From the IMG/VR virus record IMGVR_UViG_3300007352_000004: a stretch of 51,039 nucleotides of DNA, one strand, 5' to 3'. The number at the start of each line of letters is the position of its first letter. Positions within the stretch are counted from its first letter, which is position 1. The notes beneath the pieces were generated by a model, which did not search any database, was not told the origin of the DNA, and saw only the letters and a list, made by a program, of their open reading frames with translations. The DNA comes from a virus. Positions 11,693 through 51,039 of the stretch are shown here, piece by piece. The position numbers and the translations under genes were made by a program.

Positions 11693-12097
11693 ATGAGGCG
11701 CGATCGCAGACGTAAAGGGCTGGATCGAAAGTTTGCCGAGAAGGCAGCGCGCCTACAAAGCCTCCGTGAACGTTATCAGTCCCAGGCATCCACCCGGCGG
11801 GCGCTGGAGGTCAAGGCCCCAGCGAAGCCCAGATTCCGGCCCCTGTATGGCGGGGAATACGGGAAGTACCTCCTGACACCCCATTGGCGCGATCGCCGGG
11901 CCGAAGCCATCGCGGCGGCAGGGTTCAAGTGCCAGGAGTGCGGAGGGGCCGTGTCGAAGCTCGAAGTGCACCACAAAACGTATGTCAGGCTCGGGCGAGA
12001 ACTACCGACAGACCTGGAGGTTTTATGTGCACCGTGTCACAAAAACCGCCACGGAATTCGCGTAACACCAAGAAGAATCAACAAGATTCATATGTAA
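11693..12097 (+). CDS. HNH endonuclease
   Basis: CQECGG...LEVHHKTY...LEVLCAPCHKNRH matches the HNH/His-Me finger pattern with flanking Cys pairs. Confidence 0.8.
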   Translation: MRRDRRRKGLDRKFAEKAARLQSLRERYQSQASTRRALEVKAPAKPRFRPLYGGEYGKYLLTPHWRDRRAEAIAAAGFKCQECGGAVSKLEVHHKTYVRLGRELPTDLEVLCAPCHKNRHGIRVTPRRINKIHM

Positions 12098-12104
12098 CTG
12101 AAAA

Positions 12105-12130
12105 CTGTTAATTACCGGTAACGTTAACAG
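12105..12130. promoter_or_regulatory. nested palindrome CTGTTAA-TTACCGGTAA-CG-TTAACAG (terminator hairpin and/or operator)
   Basis: The outer arms CTGTTAA/TTAACAG are reverse complements. The inner TTACCGGTAA and GTTAAC are perfect palindromes. The site is 8 nt after the HNH stop. Confidence 0.4.
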
Positions 12131-12281
12131 CCGTTGATTCTAAAGGGCCACTTGACAAGAACCGGGAAACTCTGTAAGCCTAAAGGCGTAATCACTGCGC
12201 CGATGGCCCCTTCCTATAGTCTGCCGATGGCTTCGCAGGCACCGCTGCTCTCGCCCGGCCTCATAACTCAGCCCACCGACT

Positions 12282-12310
12282 CCCCCCGCGAGTTCCCCAC
12301 CCCGCTCCCC
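12282..12310 (-). other. canonical G-quadruplex / i-motif-forming tract (G-rich on the minus strand)
   Basis: The plus strand reads C6-N7-C4-N1-C4-N3-C4. It lies inside the roughly 550-bp non-coding gap between the HNH gene and the terS-like operon. Confidence 0.5.
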
Positions 12311-12579
12311 TACGGACTCCTGCGCCGCTACCGGAAATTACGCCCGGCTCTACCCAGTGGATCGTGAAGTCCCCCAAAAATATGTGAGTTTGGTTGGAGG
12401 GGTAGCACGCGGGTACGAGCGAGTGCGATTTTCAGGCCGCGAAAGGGGACCCGGAGGGACCCGTCGGGACGCCACCCAGAAATCCGCGCTAACGCCTTGA
12501 TTCAGCGAGGGATGGGCGCGAAGTTGACATAATGGTACTTACACGACCCTGGCAATAGAATCAACAACATGCAGGCTAT

Positions 12580-12597
12580 CCCCAGCTAGCGCTGGGG
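12580..12597 (-). terminator. perfect 7-bp hairpin downstream of the leftward terS-like operon
   Basis: CCCCAGC-TAGC-GCTGGGG lies about 60 nt beyond the stop of 12656..13030. Only a weak T-rich tail follows. Confidence 0.3.
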
Positions 12598-12655
12598 GCA
12601 CACGTCGCGCAAGTCCTTTGTTTATGGTCAATCGTGCTACGGGCATGGCGAGCGC

Positions 12656-13030
12656 TCAGAGCAGGTAGGCCGGCAGGTTTTCAGGGGATGAGGCGCAGGG
12701 GCTAGCAACCTCCACAGCTAAACTCTGGCGTCGCTGTACGCTGACTTGATAGTCGCGCTCCACCTCATAGGCCCGTCCTGGGTAGTTCGGGCCGGAGCAG
12801 GCGGGGCAAGGCGCGGGCTGGTGGAAGGCAAGCCCTTCCCGGATATGCTTGGCTATCTCGGCCGCCATTGGCCCAGCGCCAGGCTTGGCCAGTTCGTCGA
12901 GTCTGTGGGCCGCCACTATTCGCATGACTTTCGCTTCATCCGCCGTCATCATCCGGGCGTATTCCGCCGATAGTGTGCGTTCGTGCTCACGCTGGTAGTC
13001 CGGGTTATCCGCTGTCATCATCCTTGCCAC
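12656..13030 (-). CDS. hypothetical protein
   Basis: 124 aa containing an internal ARMMTAD duplication and a CPAC motif. It overlaps the terS-like gene end by 26 nt. Confidence 0.5.
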   Translation of the reverse strand: MARMMTADNPDYQREHERTLSAEYARMMTADEAKVMRIVAAHRLDELAKPGAGPMAAEIAKHIREGLAFHQPAPCPACSGPNYPGRAYEVERDYQVSVQRRQSLAVEVASPCASSPENLPAYLL

Positions 13031-13457
13031 CTTCGATCTGGCGAATCTCAGCTTCGGCGCCTTGGGCCATGAGGATCTGGGCGTGGCCGATGTTGAGCAC
13101 TGGGCCTGAGCCGCGCACGGTCTTGTCCGCGTAGTGAGTGGAGCGGCGGTGCTTGAGGATATGGATCTGGGCGACTACGTTGCCGTGCGGGTCGCGGGGC
13201 GTGGGGAGCGTGGCGTTGTCGTAGTGGGCGGACTCGACGCGGTCGATCGCGCCCTCTTGGGCATGACGCCACATGCGTTCGAATCGCTGGCGGAAGCCGG
13301 GGTTATTATCCAGCAGGCTGTAGAGCTGCATGTAATTGAGCCCTGCCGCCTCGGCGCACTGAGTCTTGGTGAGTTTGGGGGACTCGGCCAGGGCCTCAAG
13401 AATACGCTCCTCGACCTCAAACCTCTCGTCTGGCGTCATCCTTAGCCCGCCTGGCAC
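13005..13457 (-). CDS. terminase small subunit-like HTH protein
   Basis: It has an N-terminal HTH (LTKTQCAEAAGLNYMQLYSLL) followed by NPGFRQRFERMW and a basic ILKHRR segment. This architecture is common in small terminases. A GGGAGG SD precedes the GTG at 13457. Confidence 0.5.
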   Translation of the reverse strand: MPGGLRMTPDERFEVEERILEALAESPKLTKTQCAEAAGLNYMQLYSLLDNNPGFRQRFERMWRHAQEGAIDRVESAHYDNATLPTPRDPHGNVVAQIHILKHRRSTHYADKTVRGSGPVLNIGHAQILMAQGAEAEIRQIEGGKDDDSG

Positions 13458-29961: not shown

Positions 29962-31202
29962 CGGCGCGGAACGCAAGTCATAGACTGGTGGGACTTCTCT
30001 CTCAAGGAGGTCTCACCGAAGACATGCGACGCAAATTCCGTCAGCTCGGCCATCTCTTAATCGAGAACGGCAAGTGGAAGGTCCGTTTCCGCAAGTGGGT
30101 CGTCGCGGACGGCCGCGCCAAACGCATCCAGGCCAAGGAAACCATCGGCGAGGCGACAGGCCCCCGCGCCATCACCCGCCAAGACGCGGTGATCCTCGCT
30201 TGGCACCTGTATCTGAAGTACCAGAATCACGACGCCGAAGTGGTCTGCACTGTCGGCGAGTTCTACGTCAAGGTGTTCTGCCCCGAGCACTGCCGCAACC
30301 TCAAGCCCGGCAGTCGCGCGGACTACCAGACGCGCTGGCGGATCTGGGTGGAGCCTGTCCTGGGCCAGATCCTGTTGACGCAGGTCAAGCGCGAAGACGT
30401 CCAGCGCATCATCGGCAGCGTCCTCGCGGCGGGTCGCAGCGTGCAAACTGCCGCCCACGTCCGCAAGCTGATCCAGGCGCTATTCACGGCGGCGAAGAAG
30501 AAGGGCTGGTACGTCAACGAAAACCCCGCGGCCGCGATCGACCTGCCCGAGATGGAGCGCCGCCCCGCCATGGCCTACACCCACGAGCAGGCACGGCGAA
30601 TCCTGGAGGCGCTGGCGTCGCCTGTCCGCGAGGCCGTGCTGCTCTCGCTGACCACGGGCCTGGGGCCGGCGGAGTTCCGCGGCCTGCGGCTGGACTGCCT
30701 GAACCTGACGCCCGAGCCGCAAATCACGGGCGGCGAGGCGCTGCCGCCGTTCTCGCTCGCGGTGCGGCGGAACTTCTACCTGGGCGAGTACGGCAGCCCC
30801 AAGACGAAACAGCGCCGCCGTATCGTGCCCCTGCTGCCGGCGGTGGCCGACGCCCTGCGGGGACTGCTGCGGCGCGAGCGGTTCGCGGCGTCTGATGACC
30901 CGGTGTTCTGCGGCGCGACCGGCAGGCCCATCGACACCCACAACGTGAGCAACCGCGTGTTTGGCCCGCTGGCGAAGGCCCTGGGGTTCCCGGTGACCTG
31001 GTACGCCCTGCGGCATACGCACGCGACGTGGTGCGACCTGGCCGACATGCCGCTGACCGACCGCATGATTACGATGGGGCACGCGCGGGCCGCGATGACG
31101 CTCAACTATACGCACGTCGACGTGGAGCGGCGGCGCGAGTCGCTGCTGCTGGCGGCGGGAAGCCTGACGGAGAGGGTGGATTCGAAAGGAGCGGTGAATT
31201 GA
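29958..31202 (+). CDS. int: tyrosine recombinase / phage integrase
   Basis: 414 aa with the catalytic signature elements: TTGLGPAEFRGLRL (Arg I), WYALRHTHATW (H-x-x-R) and MGHARAAMTLNYTH (His...Tyr). Confidence 0.85.
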   Translation: MTARNASHRLVGLLSQGGLTEDMRRKFRQLGHLLIENGKWKVRFRKWVVADGRAKRIQAKETIGEATGPRAITRQDAVILAWHLYLKYQNHDAEVVCTVGEFYVKVFCPEHCRNLKPGSRADYQTRWRIWVEPVLGQILLTQVKREDVQRIIGSVLAAGRSVQTAAHVRKLIQALFTAAKKKGWYVNENPAAAIDLPEMERRPAMAYTHEQARRILEALASPVREAVLLSLTTGLGPAEFRGLRLDCLNLTPEPQITGGEALPPFSLAVRRNFYLGEYGSPKTKQRRRIVPLLPAVADALRGLLRRERFAASDDPVFCGATGRPIDTHNVSNRVFGPLAKALGFPVTWYALRHTHATWCDLADMPLTDRMITMGHARAAMTLNYTHVDVERRRESLLLAAGSLTERVDSKGAVN

Positions 31203-39590: not shown

Positions 39591-40023
39591 ACCTTGGAAA
39601 GTCGGAGCGCAGGGATTCACAAGGTTAATTTCGCTCCAAGCGTCCGAAGCGCCGCTTTGTTTCGCTTCCCCCTCTGCCCATACGAGCCTTGCTCAGCGGG
39701 GAGAGTCGGCGCAGCCGCAAGGCTGGCATCGTCTGACGGCGATGGGTGATTTTCACTATACCGGGCCGGGTTGTCTGAGTTGCTGGCAACAGCAGCGTCA
39801 GGGCCTCAGCCGGGCTGATGTTTAGCTCCGTCAGGCTCCCAGGTTAGGGTCCTATCCCCTTGCCTGGTTCGTGGTGCCGGACCCACACGGAAACTCGGGC
39901 AACCGAGTGGAAACCCGTCCGGTTCTGCGGGAAATTTATTTCCCTTTGGCTCTCTTCCCTCTGCGGGAAGGTCTGGCGGCTCATCAAACAGGCATGGTTC
40001 ACATAAGCAAGGTGATAGACAGC

Positions 40024-40461
40024 ATGGAATTAAATTTCGGCGAACCAGTTCCAGAAACAAAGACCCCCAGGAAGCGAACGCTGCCCCCCGACATCCAGTT
40101 GCGGTTCAACGAATGGTGGGCGCTGTGGCCCAAGAAAGTGGATAAGGACGATGCCGAGCGGGCCTTTGCCAAGATCATCGGGCGCGACCAGAAGAGTTTC
40201 CAGAGATTGATGCGGACCACGTCCTACTGGAACTACTTCCAATACACGCGCATGATGGCCGACAAGCGCGAGCGCGACTTTGTTCCCTACCCGGCGACGT
40301 TCTTGAATAAGGGCCGCTGGAAAGAGCCGCCGCCAGAGTTTCACGACTGGGCTGAGCGCGCGCAGCAAAACGGCGTGGCGGGCCTAAAGGCTATCGCCGA
40401 GGGGCCGCACGAGGATGTTCGGGCCGAGGCGCGGAAGGCCCTGGAGGATTTGGCGAAATGA
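40024..40461 (+). CDS. hypothetical protein (replication-module-associated type)
   Basis: An in-frame ATG at 40024 gives MELNFGEP... The FNEWWALWPKKVDKDDAERAFAKI motif is common in small phage/plasmid proteins near replication genes (from memory). An alternative ATG lies at 39994. Confidence 0.5.
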   Translation: MELNFGEPVPETKTPRKRTLPPDIQLRFNEWWALWPKKVDKDDAERAFAKIIGRDQKSFQRLMRTTSYWNYFQYTRMMADKRERDFVPYPATFLNKGRWKEPPPEFHDWAERAQQNGVAGLKAIAEGPHEDVRAEARKALEDLAK

Positions 40462-40688
40462 GCGACAAAGGCCGTAAACCCTGGCGCGTTGGCCGCAAAG
40501 TGGGGCGCACGATCTACGACGCCGATGACAACCTGATCGGCATGATGGACACGCGGGAGTTGGCGGCGGAAGTGGTGCGATGTGTAAACGTCTCTTTGGT
40601 GTCAGAGGAACTAGAGAGGGTCACTGAGGAACGGGACGAGTTGCGAGCTACTATTCACGCTTTTATTGAAAGCGGGAGAATGCAATGA
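40458..40688 (+). CDS. hypothetical protein
   Basis: 76 aa, ATGA overlap. Confidence 0.55.
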   Translation: MSDKGRKPWRVGRKVGRTIYDADDNLIGMMDTRELAAEVVRCVNVSLVSEELERVTEERDELRATIHAFIESGRMQ

Positions 40689-41038
40689 CCGACGAACTGC
40701 AAAAGATCGCGGACCAGATCAAGGCGGCGGGGGAGAAGGAAGAGGCGGAGAGCGACTTAGAGCAGACTCGCGTACAGGCTGCTGGCGTCTTAACGGCAAT
40801 CGAAGGCCACAAGCCGGACCCTCCGGTTGTCAGGGGTGATTACGGCTGGTCTCCCGCTTACGAGGTAGCCATGGCGTATCGAGTCCAACTCGAAGCCGCC
40901 CGCGCGGCCCTGCTGGTGTTCGCGGAACGGGGGAATTGGACGGATTCTCCTGCGACTCCAGGTTCTAGCCTGAATGCGGGTTGGTACGGTGCAGCCACGC
41001 CCTGGAAGATCGCGCAGAAGGCGCTGGAGGGGAAGTGA
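40685..41038 (+). CDS. hypothetical protein
   Basis: 117 aa, ATGA overlap. Confidence 0.55.
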   Translation: MTDELQKIADQIKAAGEKEEAESDLEQTRVQAAGVLTAIEGHKPDPPVVRGDYGWSPAYEVAMAYRVQLEAARAALLVFAERGNWTDSPATPGSSLNAGWYGAATPWKIAQKALEGK

Positions 41039-41262
41039 CCATCGGCTCCCAGATCCGCGCCCTGCTCCGCGAAGGCCCCTCCACGTCGGCTGAAATCACG
41101 GCGACGCTCGGGATGCCGCGCCGTGGCACGATTCGCGGCCATCTGTCGTCGCTCAAGAAGCATGGCCATGTGCGGATCGAGGGTTGGATTCGCCCGCCCA
41201 AGCACAAGCCGCAGGCGATCTGGGCGCTGACGCCGAGGGGAGAGGCGAGGGCTAGGAAGTAA
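41035..41262 (+). CDS. winged-helix DNA-binding protein, paralog A
   Basis: The GTG at 41035 overlaps the upstream TGA. Translation is IGSQIRALLREGPSTSAEITATLGMPRRGTIRGHLSSLKKHGHVRIEGW...IWALTPRG. Confidence 0.55.
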   Translation: MTIGSQIRALLREGPSTSAEITATLGMPRRGTIRGHLSSLKKHGHVRIEGWIRPPKHKPQAIWALTPRGEARARK

Positions 41263-41510
41263 TGACCAGATCCCAGGAGATCGCCATGTCGGAACTTGAG
41301 CATAGGCTGTATCACATCCTCGTGCCGCTGCTGGAAACCCATCTTGATATGGACCCGTGCCCGGCGATCAAGTTGGCCAATGAGATTGCAGCGGCAGCAG
41401 TCAGGGATATGCGGGCCAGCGCCGACCGTGCGGACGTGGAAGCAACAAAGGAACGCATCAGGGAAATAAAAGAGGCCCTACGTCGGTTGTGGATGCGAAA
41501 GGAGCGGTGA
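41262..41510 (+). CDS. hypothetical helical protein
   Basis: 82 aa, TAATG overlap. Confidence 0.55.
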   Translation: MTRSQEIAMSELEHRLYHILVPLLETHLDMDPCPAIKLANEIAAAAVRDMRASADRADVEATKERIREIKEALRRLWMRKER

Positions 41511-41809
41511 AGTTGACCCGCTCCCAGGCGATCCGCCAGATCCTGGACATCGCGCCGTCGACCTGCAACGAAGTCTCGGCGCTGCTGGGTCTGACGTGGC
41601 GCTCCACCCGGCGCGGCCTGGACGTGCTGCTGGCCCACGGCCATGTGGAGGTCGCGGGCGTGATCGACGCGCAAGGGATGCCGCGCCTGTACCGGCTCAC
41701 CCCGAGGGGCCGGGCGGTCCTGAAGGCGCGCGAGAAAGAGCACCGCATGGTGGGCTGGTTCGGGGGCCTGACGCTAAGGCCGCAGGATGTCCTGAGGAGG
41801 AGAGGGTAG
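41507..41809 (+). CDS. winged-helix DNA-binding protein, paralog B
   Basis: The GTG at 41507 overlaps the upstream TGA. LTRSQAIRQILDIAPSTCNEVSALLGLTWRSTRRGLDVLLAHGHVEVAG...LYRLTPRG parallels paralog A. Confidence 0.55.
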   Translation: MKLTRSQAIRQILDIAPSTCNEVSALLGLTWRSTRRGLDVLLAHGHVEVAGVIDAQGMPRLYRLTPRGRAVLKAREKEHRMVGWFGGLTLRPQDVLRRRG

Positions 41810-41814
41810 AAACT

Positions 41815-41967
41815 ATGCCGTGGTCAATCGGAGCAGCAGTCGTCTCGTTGCTGGTGGCTATCTTTGGCGACAGGTTAGCCCCTGGGGGCGACGCCCCACT
41901 GGTCGCGATTTGGTGGATGCTGGGCGCTATTCTATTTTGCCTTTGGAGTAAGACTGAGAATGACTGA
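41815..41967 (+). CDS. 50-aa two-TM peptide
   Basis: MPWSIGAAVVSLLVAIFGD...LVAIWWMLGAILFCLW. Confidence 0.45.
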   Translation: MPWSIGAAVVSLLVAIFGDRLAPGGDAPLVAIWWMLGAILFCLWSKTEND

Positions 41968-42373
41968 CGAACTACGCAAACTCATTCCGCTGCCGCATCT
42001 GGCGCGGTTCAAACAACTATGGGAGGGCATCGAAGTCGACCAAGTGCTCGGCGACCGCGTGCTGGTCCAGGAGGTCGAGCCGTTCACCGACATGGACAAA
42101 TCGACCATCGTGATCCCCGACGAGGTCCGCAAGCGCAATACCCCGGATGCCTGCACCGGGATCGTGCATCAGGTGGGGGACCAATACACGCGCGAGATGG
42201 GGCCCGGCGCTATGGTCCTTTTCGACCAGTTCGCGGGCTCGAAGTTCACCATCGGGAAGGTCAAGTTCCGCGTGCTCGACACGTCCGAGATTGTCTGCAC
42301 TTTGCGGGCCGTGGAAGGCAAGACGATGGGGCAACTCGTGGGGCCCGTGAAGGATGAGGTGCGGCTATGGTGA
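41960..42373 (+). CDS. GroES/Cpn10-like co-chaperonin
   Basis: LGDRVLVQEVEP...STIVIPDEV...TGIVHQVGD...GAMVLFDQFAGSKF...FRVLDTSEIVCTL follows the Cpn10 pattern (l.DRVlV...GI.iP...G.V.avG...Gd.Vlf..y.G......l....dIl). Confidence 0.6.
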   Translation: MTDELRKLIPLPHLARFKQLWEGIEVDQVLGDRVLVQEVEPFTDMDKSTIVIPDEVRKRNTPDACTGIVHQVGDQYTREMGPGAMVLFDQFAGSKFTIGKVKFRVLDTSEIVCTLRAVEGKTMGQLVGPVKDEVRLW

Positions 42374-42621
42374 TGCGACCAAGGAAAAAGCACCGGAAGA
42401 ATAACCCACCTGAGCCAGCGACGACGCAACACGCCTCGCACTGCTCATTCTGTCAAAAGGACCCTTCTCAATGTGGTGTTCTTGCGGTAGTGCCTAATAG
42501 TTCAGCCGCCATTTGCCACGAATGTTGCTTGATATCACTAGATTTGATTATGCGCTATGGCGTAATTGCTCACGAGCAGCCCTGGAAAGATCGCGCGCAA
42601 GGCGCTGGAGGGGAAGGGTAA
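42367..42621 (+). CDS. ClpX-type C4 zinc-finger-only protein, copy 1
   Basis: HCSFCQKDPSQCGVLAVVPNSSAAICHECCLISLDLI matches the ClpX N-terminal zinc-binding domain pattern CSFCGK...ICdECv..C. No ATPase domain follows. The segment is AT-richer. Confidence 0.6.
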   Translation: MVMRPRKKHRKNNPPEPATTQHASHCSFCQKDPSQCGVLAVVPNSSAAICHECCLISLDLIMRYGVIAHEQPWKDRAQGAGGEG

Positions 42622-42797
42622 TGGATTTTCCCGGCAAAATCATCGGTTCCTTGCTGCTGTCCGGCGTGGTGACGGCGGGACTGGCATTCTTTATCGGCAT
42701 CTGCGGTAGCGACAAGGCTTCCAAGACATTGTTCTTGTTGGCGATGATTATGACCCTGGCGTCGGCTGTGGTCCTATTAGTGGATGCATGGCTCTAG
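42621..42797 (+). CDS. 58-aa two-TM membrane protein
   Basis: MDFPGKIIGSLLLSGVVTAGLAFFIGICGSDK...LFLLAMIMTLASAVVLLVDAWL. Its last codons lie inside the 113-bp repeat. Confidence 0.5.
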   Translation: MDFPGKIIGSLLLSGVVTAGLAFFIGICGSDKASKTLFLLAMIMTLASAVVLLVDAWL

Positions 42798-42901
42798 CCC
42801 GATACTGCACCTTTGACTTTGGCGTACTTTCCCGGCTTCGCGCCCTTGGTGGCGACGCCGCCCTTGACGGCCGTGATGGAGTTCGCGGCGGCGTACTTAC
42901 C
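42789..42901. repeat. 113-bp direct repeat, copy 1 (partner at 43790..43902)
   Basis: The copies are identical except at three positions (42803, 42809, 42812). The offset is exactly 1001 bp. Confidence 0.95.
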
Positions 42902-42943
42902 TCTACATGCCGAGTGCGCATCCAGACCACGTTCACCTACGAG

Positions 42944-43159
42944 ATGGATTGGCATGGCCGCCCTGACGATCCCGATGAGGATGGCCAATCACTCGGCGAA
43001 CGCATTGAATTCTGGGCCAACGAGAGTTCGTCGTGCGCCGACAATCTTGTGGATGCGCTCGTGCTCTACGTGCGCCAATTGGACGCGGCTGGTGGGTGTA
43101 TGTGCGCCCTCGCTGATACGAAATTCATCGAGACCGTGGGACCCGTGAAGGAGGAATAA
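42944..43159 (+). CDS. hypothetical acidic protein
   Basis: An in-frame ATG at 42944 gives MDWHGRPDDPDEDGQSLGERIEFWANESSSCADNLVDALVLY... The upstream part of ORF 42788..43159 lies in the repeat. Confidence 0.5.
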   Translation: MDWHGRPDDPDEDGQSLGERIEFWANESSSCADNLVDALVLYVRQLDAAGGCMCALADTKFIETVGPVKEE

Positions 43160-43162
43160 GCC

Positions 43163-43384
43163 ATGGCCACACTCGAAACAGTGCCGCAACCAACCGACGA
43201 GCGGTGTTCGTTCTGCGAGATACTTCCCAGGGACGTACTTATTAGGTCGCCAGACAAATCGGCCTATATTTGCGCCGAGTGCGTTGTGGCGTGCGTTGGG
43301 TTGGTTATCGGTGACCTGCGGCTTAAAGCGGATCGCGAGAAATGGGCCGGTCGTGCCGCAATGATTCGAGACATGTACCCCTAG
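43163..43384 (+). CDS. ClpX-type C4 zinc-finger-only protein, copy 2
   Basis: RCSFCEILPRDVLIRSPDKSAYICAECVVACVGLVI is a very close match to the ClpX ZBD pattern. 73 aa with no ATPase domain. Confidence 0.65.
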   Translation: MATLETVPQPTDERCSFCEILPRDVLIRSPDKSAYICAECVVACVGLVIGDLRLKADREKWAGRAAMIRDMYP

Positions 43385-43411
43385 CCCGAAGATGCACCGG
43401 GCCTGTCAAAG

Positions 43412-43798
43412 ATGAAGGATAATCACACCATGAAAGTCATACCGCTTGAACCGGGGCTGCGCGACAGCCTCGGCGTGATGGAAGAGAAGCGCAAGGCGCT
43501 GAAGGCGGAAGCAGATGCCAAGTTCAAAGAATGGCAGGCGCTCACCGAGCAGTTGGACGCCGCGGCCAAGATGCGCCGCGAACTGTTGAATGGTGCGGCG
43601 GGCGTGAAGGATTCCGGCGAATCCGTTGAACTCAGCGATGACGGCGCGTACATCGTTGTGCGGGAGCACGTCGTTGGCCTCTACGACCACCAACAATCGT
43701 TGGCACCCCTGTACGGCCAGCAGCAAGCGGCATTGGGGAACATGCAAGGTGGGCTACTGGGGTCTGCGCTGGGAGCGCTCAGGCCGCCCTGGCTCTAG
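43412..43798 (+). CDS. hypothetical coiled-coil protein
   Basis: 128 aa. It is the last gene of the rightward early operon, and its stop lies in repeat copy 2. Confidence 0.55.
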   Translation: MKDNHTMKVIPLEPGLRDSLGVMEEKRKALKAEADAKFKEWQALTEQLDAAAKMRRELLNGAAGVKDSGESVELSDDGAYIVVREHVVGLYDHQQSLAPLYGQQQAALGNMQGGLLGSALGALRPPWL

Positions 43799-43902
43799 CC
43801 CGAAACTGCGCCCTTGACTTTGGCGTACTTTCCCGGCTTCGCGCCCTTGGTGGCGACGCCGCCCTTGACGGCCGTGATGGAGTTCGCGGCGGCGTACTTA
43901 CC
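43790..43902. repeat. 113-bp direct repeat, copy 2
   Basis: See copy 1. This copy encodes the C-terminal 35 codons of the minus-strand gene 43795..43983. Confidence 0.95.
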
Positions 43903-43983
43903 CATCGGCGGAATCACGGCATTGTGGATCTTGCCCGAGCCGACTTGCCCGTTGCCGCGTGTCTGTTTGTGTGCTCTGCCCAT
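43795..43983 (-). CDS. small Lys/Gly/Ala-rich basic protein (last gene of the late operon)
   Basis: 62 aa with an AGGAG SD 8-12 nt before the ATG at 43983. The C-terminus is GKYAAANSITAVKGGVATKGAKPGKYAKVKGAVSG. Confidence 0.55.
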   Translation of the reverse strand: MGRAHKQTRGNGQVGSGKIHNAVIPPMGKYAAANSITAVKGGVATKGAKPGKYAKVKGAVSG

Positions 43984-44086
43984 TGGTGGTCTCCTGTTCT
44001 GGTGAGTTTTTGAATAGCCAATCCCAATCCGGCCCGCTCTGCCGGTTGAGATCCGCAGGCGACGGGTGGATGCCTTGATCGTTCAT
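43898..44086 (-). CDS. possible small ORF coupled to the 964-aa gene (overlaps 43795..43983 in another frame)
   Basis: ATGA overlap with the upstream stop. The N-terminal part MNDQGIHPSPADLNRQSGPDWDWLFKNSPEQ is protein-like, and the rest is low-complexity. Confidence 0.25.
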   Translation of the reverse strand: MNDQGIHPSPADLNRQSGPDWDWLFKNSPEQETTNGQSTQTDTRQRASRLGQDPQCRDSADG

Positions 44087-46977
44087 CGAAAGTCCTGGAA
44101 TCCGGCTTGGCCCATCATCTCTTTCAGTTTAGCAATGCGTTGCCGGGGATCGGGGATCCTGAGCGCCTTGTTGATCTGGCCCCGCTTGGCCGTGATGGCC
44201 CGCGACAGCAGCGCGTGACGGCCATAGCGATCCGCCTTCTGGTACTCCTCGCTGGCGATCACGCCCTGCATGGCGATATGGATCTGCGAACCCGTCAGGG
44301 CCTCGCGGGCGCGAAACTCATAGTCGCTCTCCCAGGGGTTCTTGCGCGGGTCCCCCAGGCCGACGCGGTTTTGGACCAGCTCGCGGGTCACCGGGTCGGT
44401 GTCTTCGATGGCGGGCGCTCCGATGCCGGGGTTGATGAACGCCTGCGGGGTGTTACGCTGAATCCGCCCGAAGTTGTCGCGCCTGGGCGGCAGGGCGGTA
44501 CGCACTCCGGGGATCCGCTCCATCGCGGACGCCATCGGCCCCTGGGCGCGGGTCTCGCGCCGGGAGGGGTCGAGCAGGCGTCCCACGTCGGCCACGGCTG
44601 TCGGGACGAAGCTGCCGATCATGCGCTGCCCCATCTTCTCGAAGGATTTGCCTGACCGCGCGGCTTCGGTGATATCCTCCATGCCGGTCAGCATGGGTTG
44701 TTCCTTGACGCTGCGCAGCCCTGACGACAGCGCGGCCGCGCCCAACTCGAACGGCTTTTTGGGGTTGGTGAATTCCTCGTACATGTGGGCCCCAGAGACC
44801 ATCAGGTTGCCGCCAGGCGACAGCGCTCCGACCTGGTGCCAGCGCCCGCCGATCTTGATCGCCCCAGGGAGCCGGTTGGCGGCTTCCATGGTGCCCCGGT
44901 CGGAGGGCAACTCCGGCGACATACCGGTCATGTGGCCCGATTCGGCGAGCTTCCAGCCCGCGTACATCAGGGCCGGGCCAACCATGCCGCGCCCAATCAT
45001 CTCCGAGATGCGCTTCTGCTGCGCGGGCGTGAATGTCTTGGTGACGGCTTTGGTCGCGGCGGCGCGCACCAGCCCTACCGGTGCCCCCACGGCATACTCC
45101 ATCACGCGGCTGACGATGGCTGAGGGGGTGCTGGTGAACGGCAGAACCATGTCGAACAAGCCCTGCCCCCAGCGCCCGGTCGCACGCCAGGCTTTCTGGG
45201 CAGCGTCGGGCAATTGCGAGGGCGGCACGGCCAAGGCGTTGCGGAAACCCTTGAGGCCCTGCCCCAGCATAGTCTTGTTGGCGAACACCGCGAATTCGGA
45301 ATGAGCGGCGGCGTTGGCCAACATCTCTTCACTGGGGGCCTTGGCCAGTTGCGCGGCCCGCTTACCGATTGCCGCCGCCCCGAGCTTTCCGGCCCGCTTC
45401 TCGTTGATGGCGAGCACGCGGGCTTGGTCTTCGAGCGAACGCCGCAAGGCATAAGCACGAAACGGCGCGTCCATCGCGCCCTGGGCGCGCCTGACCTTGT
45501 TGACGTAGGTGTTGAGCCACTCGTGCTTGGTCATCAACTCGCGGGGGAAATCGAATTTCTCGAGTTGCTGGGCCTTCGCGCCGTGCTTCCAGATCTGTTT
45601 AGCTTCCGGGAACCCCTTGGCCCCCATATCCCAGAGCGACCGTCCCACGGCCCGCAAGTCAGGCCCAGCGACGGTACGCCGGCCAGTGAACCCGCTGAGC
45701 ACGATATCGGCCATGGATGCCGGTATTTTGGCAAACTCTTCCAGCGCCATCACCGTAGTGTTGCCACCGAGGTTGCGCCCGGCGTTTTTCAGTCCCGTCA
45801 GCAGCCCGGCTTGGCGAATCGCCGAGACGATCTCCGGAGCACTCGGCCTGGCGATCCTGAGCATCGACTTGTTGAGGTCTTCGAGCATCGCCATGTATTT
45901 GGCGGTGTCGCCGGAATCCCGTGCGGCGCGGGCCTCGGCGAGGGTGCGGGCCAGATCGGTGTACTGGTCGCTGTCGATGTGGCGGCCCGGCGCGAGGCGC
46001 TTGGCGCGGTTGATCCAGTAAGCGTCGTCGAGCGAACGCTTGGCCATCATCTGGTGCATCTGCAAAAAGCGCCCGTGAGACGAGCCGGTCTTGGCGATCC
46101 AGTCCAGGTATCCGGTGGCGTCCTTTTCGAGCGCCGCGATCGTGTTCTGAATGGCGTATTTCTCGGCGTCGGGGATGGCGGTGTCGAGCTTCTTGGACAG
46201 GTTCAGGATCGTGCCATTGAGTTCGCTGATGCGATTCATGGCCTCGCTGAACACGGCCTGGTGCTTAAGGGGGTCCGATTGCAGTCCTTTGACGGCACGC
46301 TGGACCACGCCCTCCGGCAACTGATCGGCGGCGGCCCGGATCATCTCGTGGGTGACGGGCTCCTGAGGCAGCAGCGGGGTCGTCTCGGACCACTTCGCCA
46401 GGAAATCGTCCCAATGGGTTTTCTCGGCGTCGGAGAGAAAGTCGAGTTTGCCGCGGATGTCGGCCCGCCGCAGCAGGCGCTCGGTGAGTTTGCCCGGCTT
46501 GCCCTTGCCAAGGAACGGCTTTGCTGCCTTCGCCATGCCAACCATTGGCATGACGCCCAGAAAGTCAGAGATGTCCGGCTGGTAGAGCGATTGCGCGAAC
46601 TCCTGCCCCATCTCCTCGGCTTTTCCCAAAGGACGTGGCGGGTGCGGCTTTGTCGGCGGCTGTTGGCCACGCAACCATTCCGCCATGGCGTTTGGTGGGT
46701 TGCGCGCCGTAAGGTTGGGCAACTGCGGTGGGCGCTCAGCGATTGGTGCTGGCGCGGGGTATTTTTCCTGAATCTGCGCCGGGATGTAACGCTCGCGATA
46801 CTTGGGTTGCGCCATGCCCAAGTACGGTCCCGTTTCTCGGGGTTCTTGGGGTGGTGGTAATTTCGGGCGCAAGTCCACGCTTGGGGCGGGCTCCCCGACT
46901 ATTGGCCCTAGCAACCGCGCAATCAAGTCGCGGATGTATGGCTCCAGCGGGTTCGGCTTCTGGGGGATGACGGCCAT
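44083..46977 (-). CDS. very large virion protein (internal core / DNA-ejection protein candidate)
   Basis: 964 aa with a Pro-rich N-terminus and a long helical body. It is the last large gene of the late operon, in the position of T7 gp15/gp16-type proteins. No enzymatic motif recognised. Confidence 0.55.
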   Translation of the reverse strand: MAVIPQKPNPLEPYIRDLIARLLGPIVGEPAPSVDLRPKLPPPQEPRETGPYLGMAQPKYRERYIPAQIQEKYPAPAPIAERPPQLPNLTARNPPNAMAEWLRGQQPPTKPHPPRPLGKAEEMGQEFAQSLYQPDISDFLGVMPMVGMAKAAKPFLGKGKPGKLTERLLRRADIRGKLDFLSDAEKTHWDDFLAKWSETTPLLPQEPVTHEMIRAAADQLPEGVVQRAVKGLQSDPLKHQAVFSEAMNRISELNGTILNLSKKLDTAIPDAEKYAIQNTIAALEKDATGYLDWIAKTGSSHGRFLQMHQMMAKRSLDDAYWINRAKRLAPGRHIDSDQYTDLARTLAEARAARDSGDTAKYMAMLEDLNKSMLRIARPSAPEIVSAIRQAGLLTGLKNAGRNLGGNTTVMALEEFAKIPASMADIVLSGFTGRRTVAGPDLRAVGRSLWDMGAKGFPEAKQIWKHGAKAQQLEKFDFPRELMTKHEWLNTYVNKVRRAQGAMDAPFRAYALRRSLEDQARVLAINEKRAGKLGAAAIGKRAAQLAKAPSEEMLANAAAHSEFAVFANKTMLGQGLKGFRNALAVPPSQLPDAAQKAWRATGRWGQGLFDMVLPFTSTPSAIVSRVMEYAVGAPVGLVRAAATKAVTKTFTPAQQKRISEMIGRGMVGPALMYAGWKLAESGHMTGMSPELPSDRGTMEAANRLPGAIKIGGRWHQVGALSPGGNLMVSGAHMYEEFTNPKKPFELGAAALSSGLRSVKEQPMLTGMEDITEAARSGKSFEKMGQRMIGSFVPTAVADVGRLLDPSRRETRAQGPMASAMERIPGVRTALPPRRDNFGRIQRNTPQAFINPGIGAPAIEDTDPVTRELVQNRVGLGDPRKNPWESDYEFRAREALTGSQIHIAMQGVIASEEYQKADRYGRHALLSRAITAKRGQINKALRIPDPRQRIAKLKEMMGQAGFQDFR

Positions 46978-50549: not shown

Positions 50550-51039
50550 TTATTTCCCCACTGCAATATCAGCGAATGGGATCTTGTCGAACATCAACTT
50601 AGTCGCCTCGTCTTCTCTCAAAAGCGGCACGAGTCGCATGATGTCGAATCCCTTGCGCTTGATTTCCTCGATAGGGATATAGCCAGAGCGCAGTATCCTG
50701 GAAGGATCAGAAGGGCTTCGTATATCAACGAAAACGCTATCAAGCCCCCTCCCTAGGGCATCGTCATAAAGACGCTCCAGGGCCTTCGCTGTAGTTTTCC
50801 TGGAGCTTGCGCCAGCCATAAGGTCAATTCCGCCATGTGTCAGCCTAATCGCCCCTCTAGCCTGCGCCTCGCTCAGGTCCTGGCCAAGGCCAAGCCGCTG
50901 GCTTAATTGGTGATGATTTTCATCAATTGCAGACTCCACGAACTTTCCGCGAGGCGTGACCATTCCCACAAACGAGAGCGGCGTCATGAGTGAAGAAATA
51001 TCGGGCTGGGCCATTCCCAGCAACGCGCTACGCAGTGTT
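50550..51039 (-). CDS. C-terminal part of the junction-spanning hypothetical virion-module protein (see 1..236)
   Basis: The ORF track starts it at a TTG (51023). The frame is open to the window end and continues into 100..236 once the sequence is circularised. Confidence 0.65.
   Translation of the reverse strand, partial: TLRSALLGMAQPDISSLMTPLSFVGMVTPRGKFVESAIDENHHQLSQRLGLGQDLSEAQARGAIRLTHGGIDLMAGASSRKTTAKALERLYDDALGRGLDSVFVDIRSPSDPSRILRSGYIPIEEIKRKGFDIMRLVPLLREDEATKLMFDKIPFADIAVGK
50941..51039. repeat. terminal 99-bp overlap identical to 1..99
   Basis: Direct comparison. Confidence 0.95.

Follow-up and report, generated by a model that had tools for sequence, protein, structure and literature searches.

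Two diverged orphan ClpX-type zinc-binding domain proteins encoded by tandem accessory cassettes in a temperate phage genome

Small early phage proteins that disable one host protease, protecting phage or host proteins, are exemplified by T4 PinA and T7 Gp4.5, which act against Lon, and lambda CIII, which acts against FtsH. These act on proteases other than ClpXP, are unrelated in fold, and are not mimics of any domain of their target. In the literature searched we found no ClpX-directed counterpart of these proteins, no phage inhibitor of ClpX, and no study of phage-encoded orphan zinc-binding domains (ZBDs) of the ClpX type. The ZBD of ClpX is a dimerization domain, and the isolated domain dimerizes by itself (PMC7226468). 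Its F16/I46 pocket is used by trigger factor, SspB, and RssB and overlaps the lambda O site (PMC7804408). When supplied in trans at 5-20 uM against 0.6 uM ClpXP, the ZBD inhibited RssB-mediated degradation of sigmaS, and ClpX without the ZBD still degrades adaptor-independent substrates (PMC7226468). Here we describe two genes, which we call ZBD1 and ZBD2, in IMG/VR virus record IMGVR_UViG_3300007352_000004, a stretch of 51,039 nucleotides (nt) that we analyzed at its full length and call the window. The two proteins add a new and diverged pair to a class of proteins that is known but unstudied. The genes are:

42367..42621, plus strand: ZBD1, an 84-amino acid (aa) orphan ClpX-type C4 zinc-binding domain (C26, C29, C50, and C53)
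43163..43384, plus strand: ZBD2, a 73-aa orphan ClpX-type C4 zinc-binding domain (C15, C18, C37, and C40)

Both open reading frames (ORFs) have the positions, lengths, and C4 motifs that an earlier note on this DNA had given them. Neither protein has an AAA+ module (Walker A and B motifs, pore loops, IGF loop), as the note had also said, and they end 31-33 residues past the fourth Cys. Membership of the Pfam family zf-C4_ClpX held only in part. ZBD1 matched at 25.3 bits (E-value 1.4e-5, profile positions 2-36 of 39) and ZBD2 at 22.5 bits (E-value 1e-4, positions 2-35 of 39), but both scores are just below the gathering score of 27 bits (PF06689), leading us to file the proteins by sequence as diverged ZBD homologues and not as members of the family at its curated threshold. 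The sole NCBIfam matches of the two proteins were to the N-termini (approximately positions 3-50 of 414-418) of the ClpX models TIGR00382 and NF003745. Among PDB sequences, the top matches were the ClpX ZBD structures 1ovx and 2ds5-2ds8, in which all four Cys align, and the alignment of ZBD2 to residues 15-56 of E. coli ClpX has no gaps. The four putative ligands are in register with C14, C17, C36, and C39 of ClpX, so that both proteins share with the ClpX ZBD (PF06689; 1OVX, 2DS5-2DS8) the order CxxC, spacer, CxxC. The spacer between the Cys pairs is 18 residues in ZBD2, the same as in E. coli ClpX, and 20 residues in ZBD1. Of the two residues that mark the adaptor and substrate pocket of ClpX, the equivalent of Phe16 is F and the equivalent of Ile46 is L, another hydrophobic residue, in both window proteins. 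ZBD1 and ZBD2 are 35% identical to each other over 54 aa (E-value 3e-7), and at this identity all four Cys, the Phe16 equivalent, and the hydrophobic positions of the helix are kept. From these alignments we take them to be paralogues that are not ClpX but motorless homologues of its ZBD.

Structure prediction agreed with this assignment. The AlphaFold2 models had pLDDT values of 86.6 for ZBD2 and 80.5 for ZBD1. In Foldseek searches against the PDB, the top two matches of the ZBD2 model were ClpX or the ClpX ZBD (2ds5 at 1.6 A over 40 columns), as were the top five matches of the ZBD1 model (probability 0.97-1.00). Overall, the ClpX matches had probabilities of 0.87-1.0, with RING and treble-clef fingers ranked lower for both proteins. 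The models thus share the beta-hairpin-plus-helix fold of the ClpX ZBD, with a predicted root-mean-square deviation of approximately 1.6-2.1 A over 40 columns to 2ds5 and 2ds6. The earlier note had raised generic zinc ribbons of another family as an alternative, but no other zinc-finger family matched better than the ClpX ZBD.

There are also differences from ClpX. ZBD1 and ZBD2 are free proteins of 73-84 aa that lack both a linker and the canonical KLIAGP motif. The ZBD1 sequence also has extra Cys residues and an insertion of 2 residues in a loop. Both have C-terminal helical extensions of their own that are predicted to reach beyond the portion matched to ZBD crystal structures; in ZBD2 this is a long predicted helix (residues 38-71) that continues past the zinc-binding domain. 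Residues 1-25 of ZBD1 (42367..42440) form a basic, Pro-rich N-terminal tail, RPRKKHRKNNPPEPA. This tail resembles the tails of two unrelated orphan ZBDs, P0051 (KTKKPPEPADPP) and P0058 (RRRPSKPAPP). A Trp is found 20-23 residues past the fourth Cys in ZBD1 (W73) and ZBD2 (W63) as well as in the unrelated orphan ZBDs P0012, P0092, and P0133. This recurrent Trp lies on the helix past the canonical domain and could be a partner-binding motif.

We examined how widespread such proteins are by searching 1.84 billion representative proteins with HMMER, using a profile of ZBD1 and ZBD2. There were 453 matches at E<=1e-3, and the best 150 of these were almost all short (59-300 aa). Many of the best 150 contain two to four tandem ZBDs, and one, P0040, contains six. 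None of the 32 matches inspected by sequence contained an ATPase. Thus, bacteria and phages have orphan ZBD ORFs that are like ZBD1 and ZBD2 in being short, in carrying one or several ZBDs, and in having no ATPase. Across 68 ZBD domains from 53 short proteins other than ClpX, the Phe16 equivalent was kept in 67, position 46 was I, L, V, or M in 54, and the spacer was always 18-20 residues. Public databases name orphan ZBDs 'ClpX C4-type zinc finger protein' (NCBI PGAP) or 'ATP-dependent protease Clp ATPase subunit'. PHROGs has small orphan-ZBD families (phrog_12435 'protease' and phrog_6797), which gave weak matches for ZBD1 and ZBD2. One virome study removed a contig for carrying the ZBD, which was taken as a sign of cellular contamination (10.1101/608950). 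The metagenomic proteins P0002, P0003, P0005, P0008, and P0040 have two to six tandem ClpX-type ZBDs and no ATPase, and in some tandem-ZBD proteins, P0040 (654 aa) among them, the N-terminal region is long and TPR-like. These covalently linked arrays, of which we found no description, might mimic the ZBD dimers of the ClpX hexamer.

Within IMG/VR, 27 loci contained ZBD-like sequence, comprising 11 full-length clpX genes and 16 genes for single-ZBD proteins of 62-184 aa. Recurrent neighbors of phage orphan ZBDs were RusA-like resolvases, integrases, repressors, anti-repressors (Ant), helicases, methyltransferases, and terminases, a set of genes that constitutes the accessory early region of temperate phages. 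For example, the 49-kb phage contig L028 encodes an S24-type repressor and, in its early operon, an orphan ZBD, P0017. The phage orphan ZBDs are therefore like the window genes in lying in early or accessory regions of temperate genomes. Compared with the IMG/VR orphan ZBDs, the window copies are much more diverged, and theirs is the sole locus seen here with two copies. The full-length clpX genes (413-425 aa) are on eleven low-GC (0.35-0.45) 'viral' contigs, L002-L009, L012, L014, and L015, and represent either host DNA in prophage calls or phage-encoded ClpX.

Close relatives of the window proteins were not found. A word-indexed protein search for close homologues returned only ZBD2 itself and nothing for ZBD1. 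Searches of 50,697 deposited phages with tblastn (ZBD1, ZBD2, and the adjacent GroES-like protein described below) and with blastn (the region) gave no match. A structural search of BFVD gave only weak matches to uncharacterized zinc fingers, and PADLOC, searched for defense systems, gave no match for any cassette protein. Because a profile containing the window proteins is biased toward them, we left them out of two further profiles, one of viral orphan ZBDs and one of true ClpX N-domains. The viral orphan ZBD profile scored ZBD1 at 19.7 bits and ZBD2 at 27.4 bits, and the true ClpX N-domain profile scored ZBD1 at 24.2 bits and ZBD2 at 16.0 bits. By comparison, viral orphan ZBDs and true ClpX N-domains scored 46-90 bits against each other. 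We considered a distinct 'standalone' ZBD clade that includes the window copies and rejected it, since the unbiased profiles place ZBD1 and ZBD2 equally far from both groups.

This divergence bears on what the proteins might do. One explanation is that the ZBDs are zinc-stabilized interaction or dimerization modules with partners unrelated to ClpXP, such as transcription factors, RNA polymerase or sigma factors, or phage proteins, and that the resemblance to ClpX reflects ancestry only. In cyanobacteria the domain is fused to sigma-70 family factors (PMC11119718), and some proteins contain 2-6 tandem ZBDs without AAA+, suggesting that the ZBD is a portable module. The scores of 16-24 bits against ClpX N-domains, the C-terminal helical extensions past the part matched to ZBD structures, and the location of the genes among winged helix-turn-helix (wHTH) regulators in the early operon are in keeping with such a role. 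By contrast, the best-kept residues are the zinc ligands and the F16/I46-equivalent pocket, and no other zinc-finger family gives a better match. On balance we consider this explanation unlikely.

The kept pocket, together with the in vitro precedent of purified ZBD inhibiting ClpXP in trans (PMC7226468), led us to take up the decoy idea of the earlier note and to consider that ZBD1 and ZBD2 may be N-domain mimics, or decoys, that dampen proteolysis by ClpXP where it depends on adaptors or the N-domain. We hold this reading tentatively, at a little short of an even chance. The two proteins would be expressed early together with the replication genes, and the free domains would dimerize. They could then act either by soaking up adaptors or N-domain-dependent substrates or by forming heterodimers with the ZBD of host ClpX. 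Adaptor- and N-domain-dependent proteolysis would be selectively reduced with the motor left unblocked. Proteins that might benefit include the phage replication initiator, by analogy with lambda O, regulators of the lysis-lysogeny decision, and host proteins such as antitoxins. Two diverged paralogues might provide coverage of different partners. In the proposed blocking of a docking interface rather than of the motor, the window proteins would resemble both the isolated ClpX ZBD in vitro and the anti-adaptors IraD, IraM, and IraP of RssB-ClpXP. Unlike these, which are a laboratory fragment of a host protein and unrelated host proteins, respectively, they are putative mimics encoded by a phage.

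Several observations weigh against a decoy role. Inhibition by free ZBD in vitro took a 10-30-fold molar excess (PMC7226468). Both proteins fall under the Pfam gathering score for zf-C4_ClpX. Their scores of only 16-27 bits against the unbiased profiles suggest that their binding surfaces may have drifted to other partners. Also, a gene caller based on codon usage selected neither ORF.

The opposite effect on ClpXP is also conceivable. The ZBDs could promote degradation as phage-encoded adaptors if each formed a heterodimer with the ClpX N-domain and tethered cargo bound by its extension, for instance defense factors, to ClpXP. The ZBD is a dimerization domain (PMC7226468), and both proteins have something beyond it that might hold cargo, namely the basic Pro-rich tail of ZBD1, the 34-residue helix of ZBD2, and the Trp that recurs in several orphan ZBDs. 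However, the ZBDs of ClpX are already paired in the hexamer, and free monomers are not known to exchange into such pairs. Neither extension is long or conserved between ZBD1 and ZBD2, model confidence is low for that of ZBD1, and the literature searched held no precedent. We thus regard a role in promoting degradation as improbable.

A broader form of the decoy proposal is that orphan ClpX ZBDs are widespread, unrecognized phage N-domain mimics that switch off adaptor- or N-domain-dependent ClpXP, that they evolve rapidly as exchangeable alleles at hot-spot slots, and that two with different partner specificities have been stacked in the window, making them the ClpX counterpart of PinA, Gp4.5, and CIII. 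We consider this broader proposal rather doubtful. ClpXP sets the stability of phage replication proteins, transposases, cleaved repressor fragments, sigma factors, and antitoxins. If the proposal is true, N-domain mimics could affect replication-protein stability, lysis-lysogeny decisions, and antitoxin turnover, and a phage that encodes a mimic of the docking domain of ClpX would have a simple means, at the level of a single domain, of rewiring ClpXP control. If ZBD1 and ZBD2 have no effect on ClpXP, what is left of the finding is a pair of diverged zinc fingers within a mosaic stretch of genome. Orphan ZBD proteins occur commonly across metagenomes of phages and bacteria, with hundreds of profile matches, and are annotated only generically. 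The value of these observations lies more in this neglected wider class of phage proteins than in the locus itself, which yields two diverged and easily synthesized ZBD test proteins.

The window is a JGI metagenome contig that ends in the very 99 nt with which it begins (1-99 and 50941-51039, identical), so that it either is a circular assembly, a complete genome of approximately 50.9 kb, or has a terminal repeat. The earlier note had called the phage temperate, and this was borne out by a CII-like activator, by homologues of replication-initiator and primosomal proteins (one at 39871..40461), and by an integrase:

30024..31202: tyrosine integrase (phrog_1, E-value 3e-55; Pfam Phage_integrase)

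Structural and packaging genes are also present, including a large terminase, an SU10-type portal, a major capsid protein, and a head protease. Together these genes identify the window as a complete temperate phage genome. We found no relatives of the phage by searching IMG/VR with the portal protein or metagenome contigs with a 964-aa protein of the window. Likewise, exact DNA probes (ZBD2 and the conserved core of a 62-aa gene, ORF62) had no match in metagenome, viral, and genome collections. The ZBD genes are at the distal end of a rightward early/replication operon, close to where the leftward structural operon converges on it, and the replication initiator gene is 1.5 kb upstream of them. 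Immediately upstream of ZBD1 is a gene for a GroES-like protein:

41960..42373, plus strand: GroES/Cpn10-family co-chaperonin of 137 aa (Pfam Cpn10, phrog_3188, homologue on contig L029)

The start of ZBD1 overlaps the stop of the GroES-like gene (ATGGTGA) and has a Shine-Dalgarno-like GAGGTG upstream. ZBD2 is preceded by a strong Shine-Dalgarno sequence, AAGGAGGA, that is inside a 21-nt remnant of the GroES-like 3' end. This arrangement suggests that ZBD1 is translationally coupled to the GroES-like gene and that, judging by position, both ZBD proteins are probably made together with the early proteins.

The earlier note had identified a Cpn10/GroES-like gene at this site, and we agree that the product is a genuine homologue. 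It matched Pfam Cpn10 at 43.1 bits (gathering score 21.1, E-value 4e-11, profile positions 4-92 of 93) and also phrog_3188 (co-chaperonin GroES), and it aligned to T. thermophilus GroES (4v4o and 1wnr) along the whole of the latter. A mobile loop of the GroEL-binding type is intact, with KSTIVIPDEVRKR opposite KGGIVLPDTAKEK of T. thermophilus GroES. However, its best score against the NCBIfam GroES models was only 39.6 bits, far under their equivalog and subfamily cut-offs (96-215 bits), suggesting that it is a diverged phage member of the Cpn10 family and no orthologue of cellular GroES. Like other phage co-chaperonins (T4 gp31 and those in a survey of viral GroES proteins, PMC5649160), it is a phage-encoded Cpn10 member with the IVIP mobile-loop motif. 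It differs from T4 gp31 in having a canonical GroES-like sequence, and from both T4 gp31 and the surveyed proteins in having a conserved 28-aa N-terminal extension and in being encoded in the early operon of a temperate phage. The extension (41960..42043) has no counterpart in the Cpn10 profile or in GroES structures, where matches begin at residue 27-30. An alignment search of genome and viral collections found no relative of the GroES-like protein, and among 5.8 billion clustered proteins there was exactly one, P0158, which is 75% identical, keeps the mobile-loop motif, and is encoded on L029, a 3.3-kb Logan contig. Between the window and L029, the extension has 21 identical, 5 synonymous, and 1 non-synonymous codons, whereas the C-terminal half of the protein is far more variable (25 identical, 13 synonymous, and 22 non-synonymous). 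These counts suggest that the GroES-like gene is under purifying selection. Its codon usage is typical of the genome, with a GC content at third codon positions (GC3) of 0.82 and positive coding log-odds.

Comparison with L029 suggests how the ZBD genes came to lie where they do. The gene order on L029 is a wHTH gene, the GroES-like gene, a convergent 62-aa gene, and the C-terminus of the 964-aa protein. The 62-aa product is 89% identical to that of ORF62 in the window and the C-terminus is 71% identical to the corresponding window ORF. In L029, the GroES-like stop overlaps the stop of the 62-aa gene with nothing between them. By blastn, L029 2360-2771 corresponds to window 41961-42357 and L029 2778-2966 to window 43795-43983. 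Since homology stops at 42357 and resumes at 43795, we interpret the sequence between as having been inserted into a variable slot, which in this sole relative is empty. The features of the slot, followed by the convergent gene to its right, are:

42358..43794: inserted segment of approximately 1.44 kb with two tandem accessory cassettes; not in L029; GC 0.578
42621..42797, plus strand: TM58, a small protein with two predicted transmembrane (TM) segments; its start overlaps the ZBD1 stop (TAATG)
42914..43159, plus strand: ORFx, an uncertain ORF of 81 aa, a gene call with no homologues
43412..43798, plus strand: ORF128, a 128-aa protein, the last gene of the rightward operon, with coding-like codon usage
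43795..43983, minus strand: ORF62, intact, coding for 62 aa rich in Lys, Gly, and Ala and convergent with the early operon; 89% identical in aa to L029 2778-2966

In order, the insert contains ZBD1, TM58, the first copy of a 113-nt repeat, ORFx, ZBD2, and ORF128. Two cassettes fill the slot, one consisting of ZBD1 and TM58 and the other of ORFx, ZBD2, and ORF128. In agreement with an insertion, the ZBD genes have low GC, atypical codon usage, and negative coding log-odds: the genome has a GC of 0.617 and GC3 of 0.80, compared with 0.522 and 0.51 for ZBD1 and 0.563 and 0.62 for ZBD2. The GC of TM58 is 0.537. We found no sigma-70-like promoter or intrinsic terminator in 41500-44300. The insert genes therefore seem to be transcribed with the early operon, and the term 'moron' applies to them loosely. 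TM58 had no significant family match and ORFx had none in Pfam, PHROG, or PADLOC, the databases searched for both; ORF62 had no family match in PHROG or PADLOC. ORF62 differs from its L029 counterpart at 15 synonymous versus 7 non-synonymous codons and has a GC3 of 0.81, indicating a real, conserved gene, which comes last in the leftward structural operon.

The boundaries of the cassettes are marked by repeated sequences, listed here with the exception of the second copy of the 113-nt repeat, which is part of intact ORF62:

42789..42901, minus strand: copy 1 of the 113-nt repeat, a truncated duplicate of the last 35 codons and stop of ORF62; right-junction remnant of cassette 1
42337..42357, plus strand: left junction copy 1, the 21-nt GroES-like 3' end (...VGPVKDE), where L029 homology ends
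43135..43155, plus strand: left junction copy 2, the 21-nt remnant of the GroES-like 3' end directly 5' of ZBD2 that holds its Shine-Dalgarno sequence

The two copies of the 113-nt repeat (42789-42901 and 43790-43902) are 97% identical and 1001 nt apart. Each consists of the last 35 codons of ORF62, its stop, and a few extra bases. The copies differ at three positions, each of them synonymous when read in the frame of ORF62; at two of the positions L029 has the base of copy 2, and at the third it is uninformative. TM58 and ORF128 both end with WL* inside the repeat, where CTAG is shared with the ORF62 stop. The 21-nt GroES-like 3' end, which matches that of L029, recurs at the 3' end of ORFx (...VGPVKEE*). 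Only the last 9-12 codons of ORFx (...ETVGPVKEE*) derive from the GroES-like 3' end, and we rejected ORFx as a diverged GroES because, without its last 12 residues, 216-255 of 500 shuffles score as well or better. Each cassette is thus flanked by a remnant of the GroES-like 3' end on the left and of the ORF62 3' end on the right. The earlier note had placed the ZBD genes in two halves of a 1-kb duplicated junction. The 113-nt repeat is real, but the kilobase is not duplicated; the halves share only 21-23-nt DNA matches, by which we rejected a simple 1-kb tandem duplication. We also considered whether the 113-nt repeat might act as regulatory RNA, as a terminator, or as a promoter, and rejected all three because its folding is no better than that of shuffled sequence and it has no consensus sites and no Rfam match. 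The simplest reading is that ZBD1-TM58 and ZBD2-ORF128 used to be alternative alleles at one slot, carried by related phages, and that unequal or illegitimate recombination then put them in tandem. Weighing against this two-allele model, it depends on a single 3.3-kb relative, and no phage with a single cassette was found in the collections searched. The locus is an example of accessory cassettes stacking at a convergent-operon junction with readable recombination scars left behind.

A region so full of scars, including a truncated copy of ORF62 and the chimeric ORFx, raises the question of whether the ZBD ORFs are themselves decaying or non-functional remnants, that is, captured 5' fragments of clpX or recombination debris. 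Their atypical codon usage and negative coding log-odds, the failure of the codon-usage gene caller to pick either of them, and their lack of close homologues would fit with this. Yet both ORFs are intact with good translation signals, and JGI called ZBD2 as a gene. At 35% mutual identity the two still have the four Cys, the Phe16 equivalent, and the hydrophobic residues of the helix, and AlphaFold2 folds both proteins confidently. Divergence from any ClpX is also too great for recent gene fragments. We consider it very unlikely that they are remnants.

The insertion also bears on the claim in the earlier note that the GroES-like and ZBD genes form a compact chaperone/protease-targeting cluster. 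If so, the proteins could be one coordinated proteostasis-hijack module acting on the same clients. The translational coupling of ZBD1 to the GroES-like gene is what such a module might show, and a GroES-type 3' end precedes both ZBD genes, so that in this lineage a ZBD has twice come to be just downstream of a GroES-like gene. However, L029 keeps the GroES-like gene and ORF62 without ZBD genes. Furthermore, no GroES-like gene was found within approximately 4 kb at 17 other phage orphan-ZBD loci. Of these loci, the 16 from IMG/VR had neither a GroES-like ORF nor a second ZBD within approximately 4 kb, and the remaining one, on L028, has no GroES near its orphan ZBD. Codon usage separates the core GroES-like gene, where it is typical, from the acquired ZBD genes, where it is atypical, and the junction remnants are accounted for by recombination at a common slot. 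These comparisons argue that the adjacency is an accident of insertion into a variable slot with no evolutionary link, and we give very little credence to a joint module. Most likely, the GroES-like protein works separately with host GroEL in folding phage proteins.

The early operon upstream of the GroES-like gene appears to vary as well. Between the wHTH genes and the GroES-like gene of the window is one more small gene:

41815..41967, plus strand: TM50, a small protein with two predicted TM segments upstream of the GroES-like gene; not in L029

TM50 is missing from L029, where the wHTH gene directly abuts the GroES-like gene. The window has two winged-helix paralogues upstream of the GroES-like gene (41035..41262 and 41507..41809; 42% identity over 72 aa, E-value 3e-11) compared with one homologue in L029 (2079-2366), suggesting that this stretch varies by duplication or insertion.

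There were also three minor observations. An HNH endonuclease gene (11693..12097, plus strand) adjoins approximately 550 nt (12100-12655) in which no ORF is convincing. The pair is located between the portal gene and a possible small terminase gene (13005..13439, 144 aa). Such an arrangement is typical of HNH-assisted cos packaging; Rfam gave no match. The GroES-like protein and the product of ORF 40685..41038 share the start MTDEL[R/Q]K[L/I], which may be another short boundary sequence in a mosaic region. Lastly, a 38-nt repeat (92% identical, E-value 3e-10) at 41000-41035 and 42580-42616 forms the 3' end of ORF 40685..41038 (...PWKIAQKALEGK*) and of ZBD1, with the frames offset by one base. 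Both copies contain the GGAGG Shine-Dalgarno sequence of the next gene, and the repeat is probably another mosaic boundary sequence.

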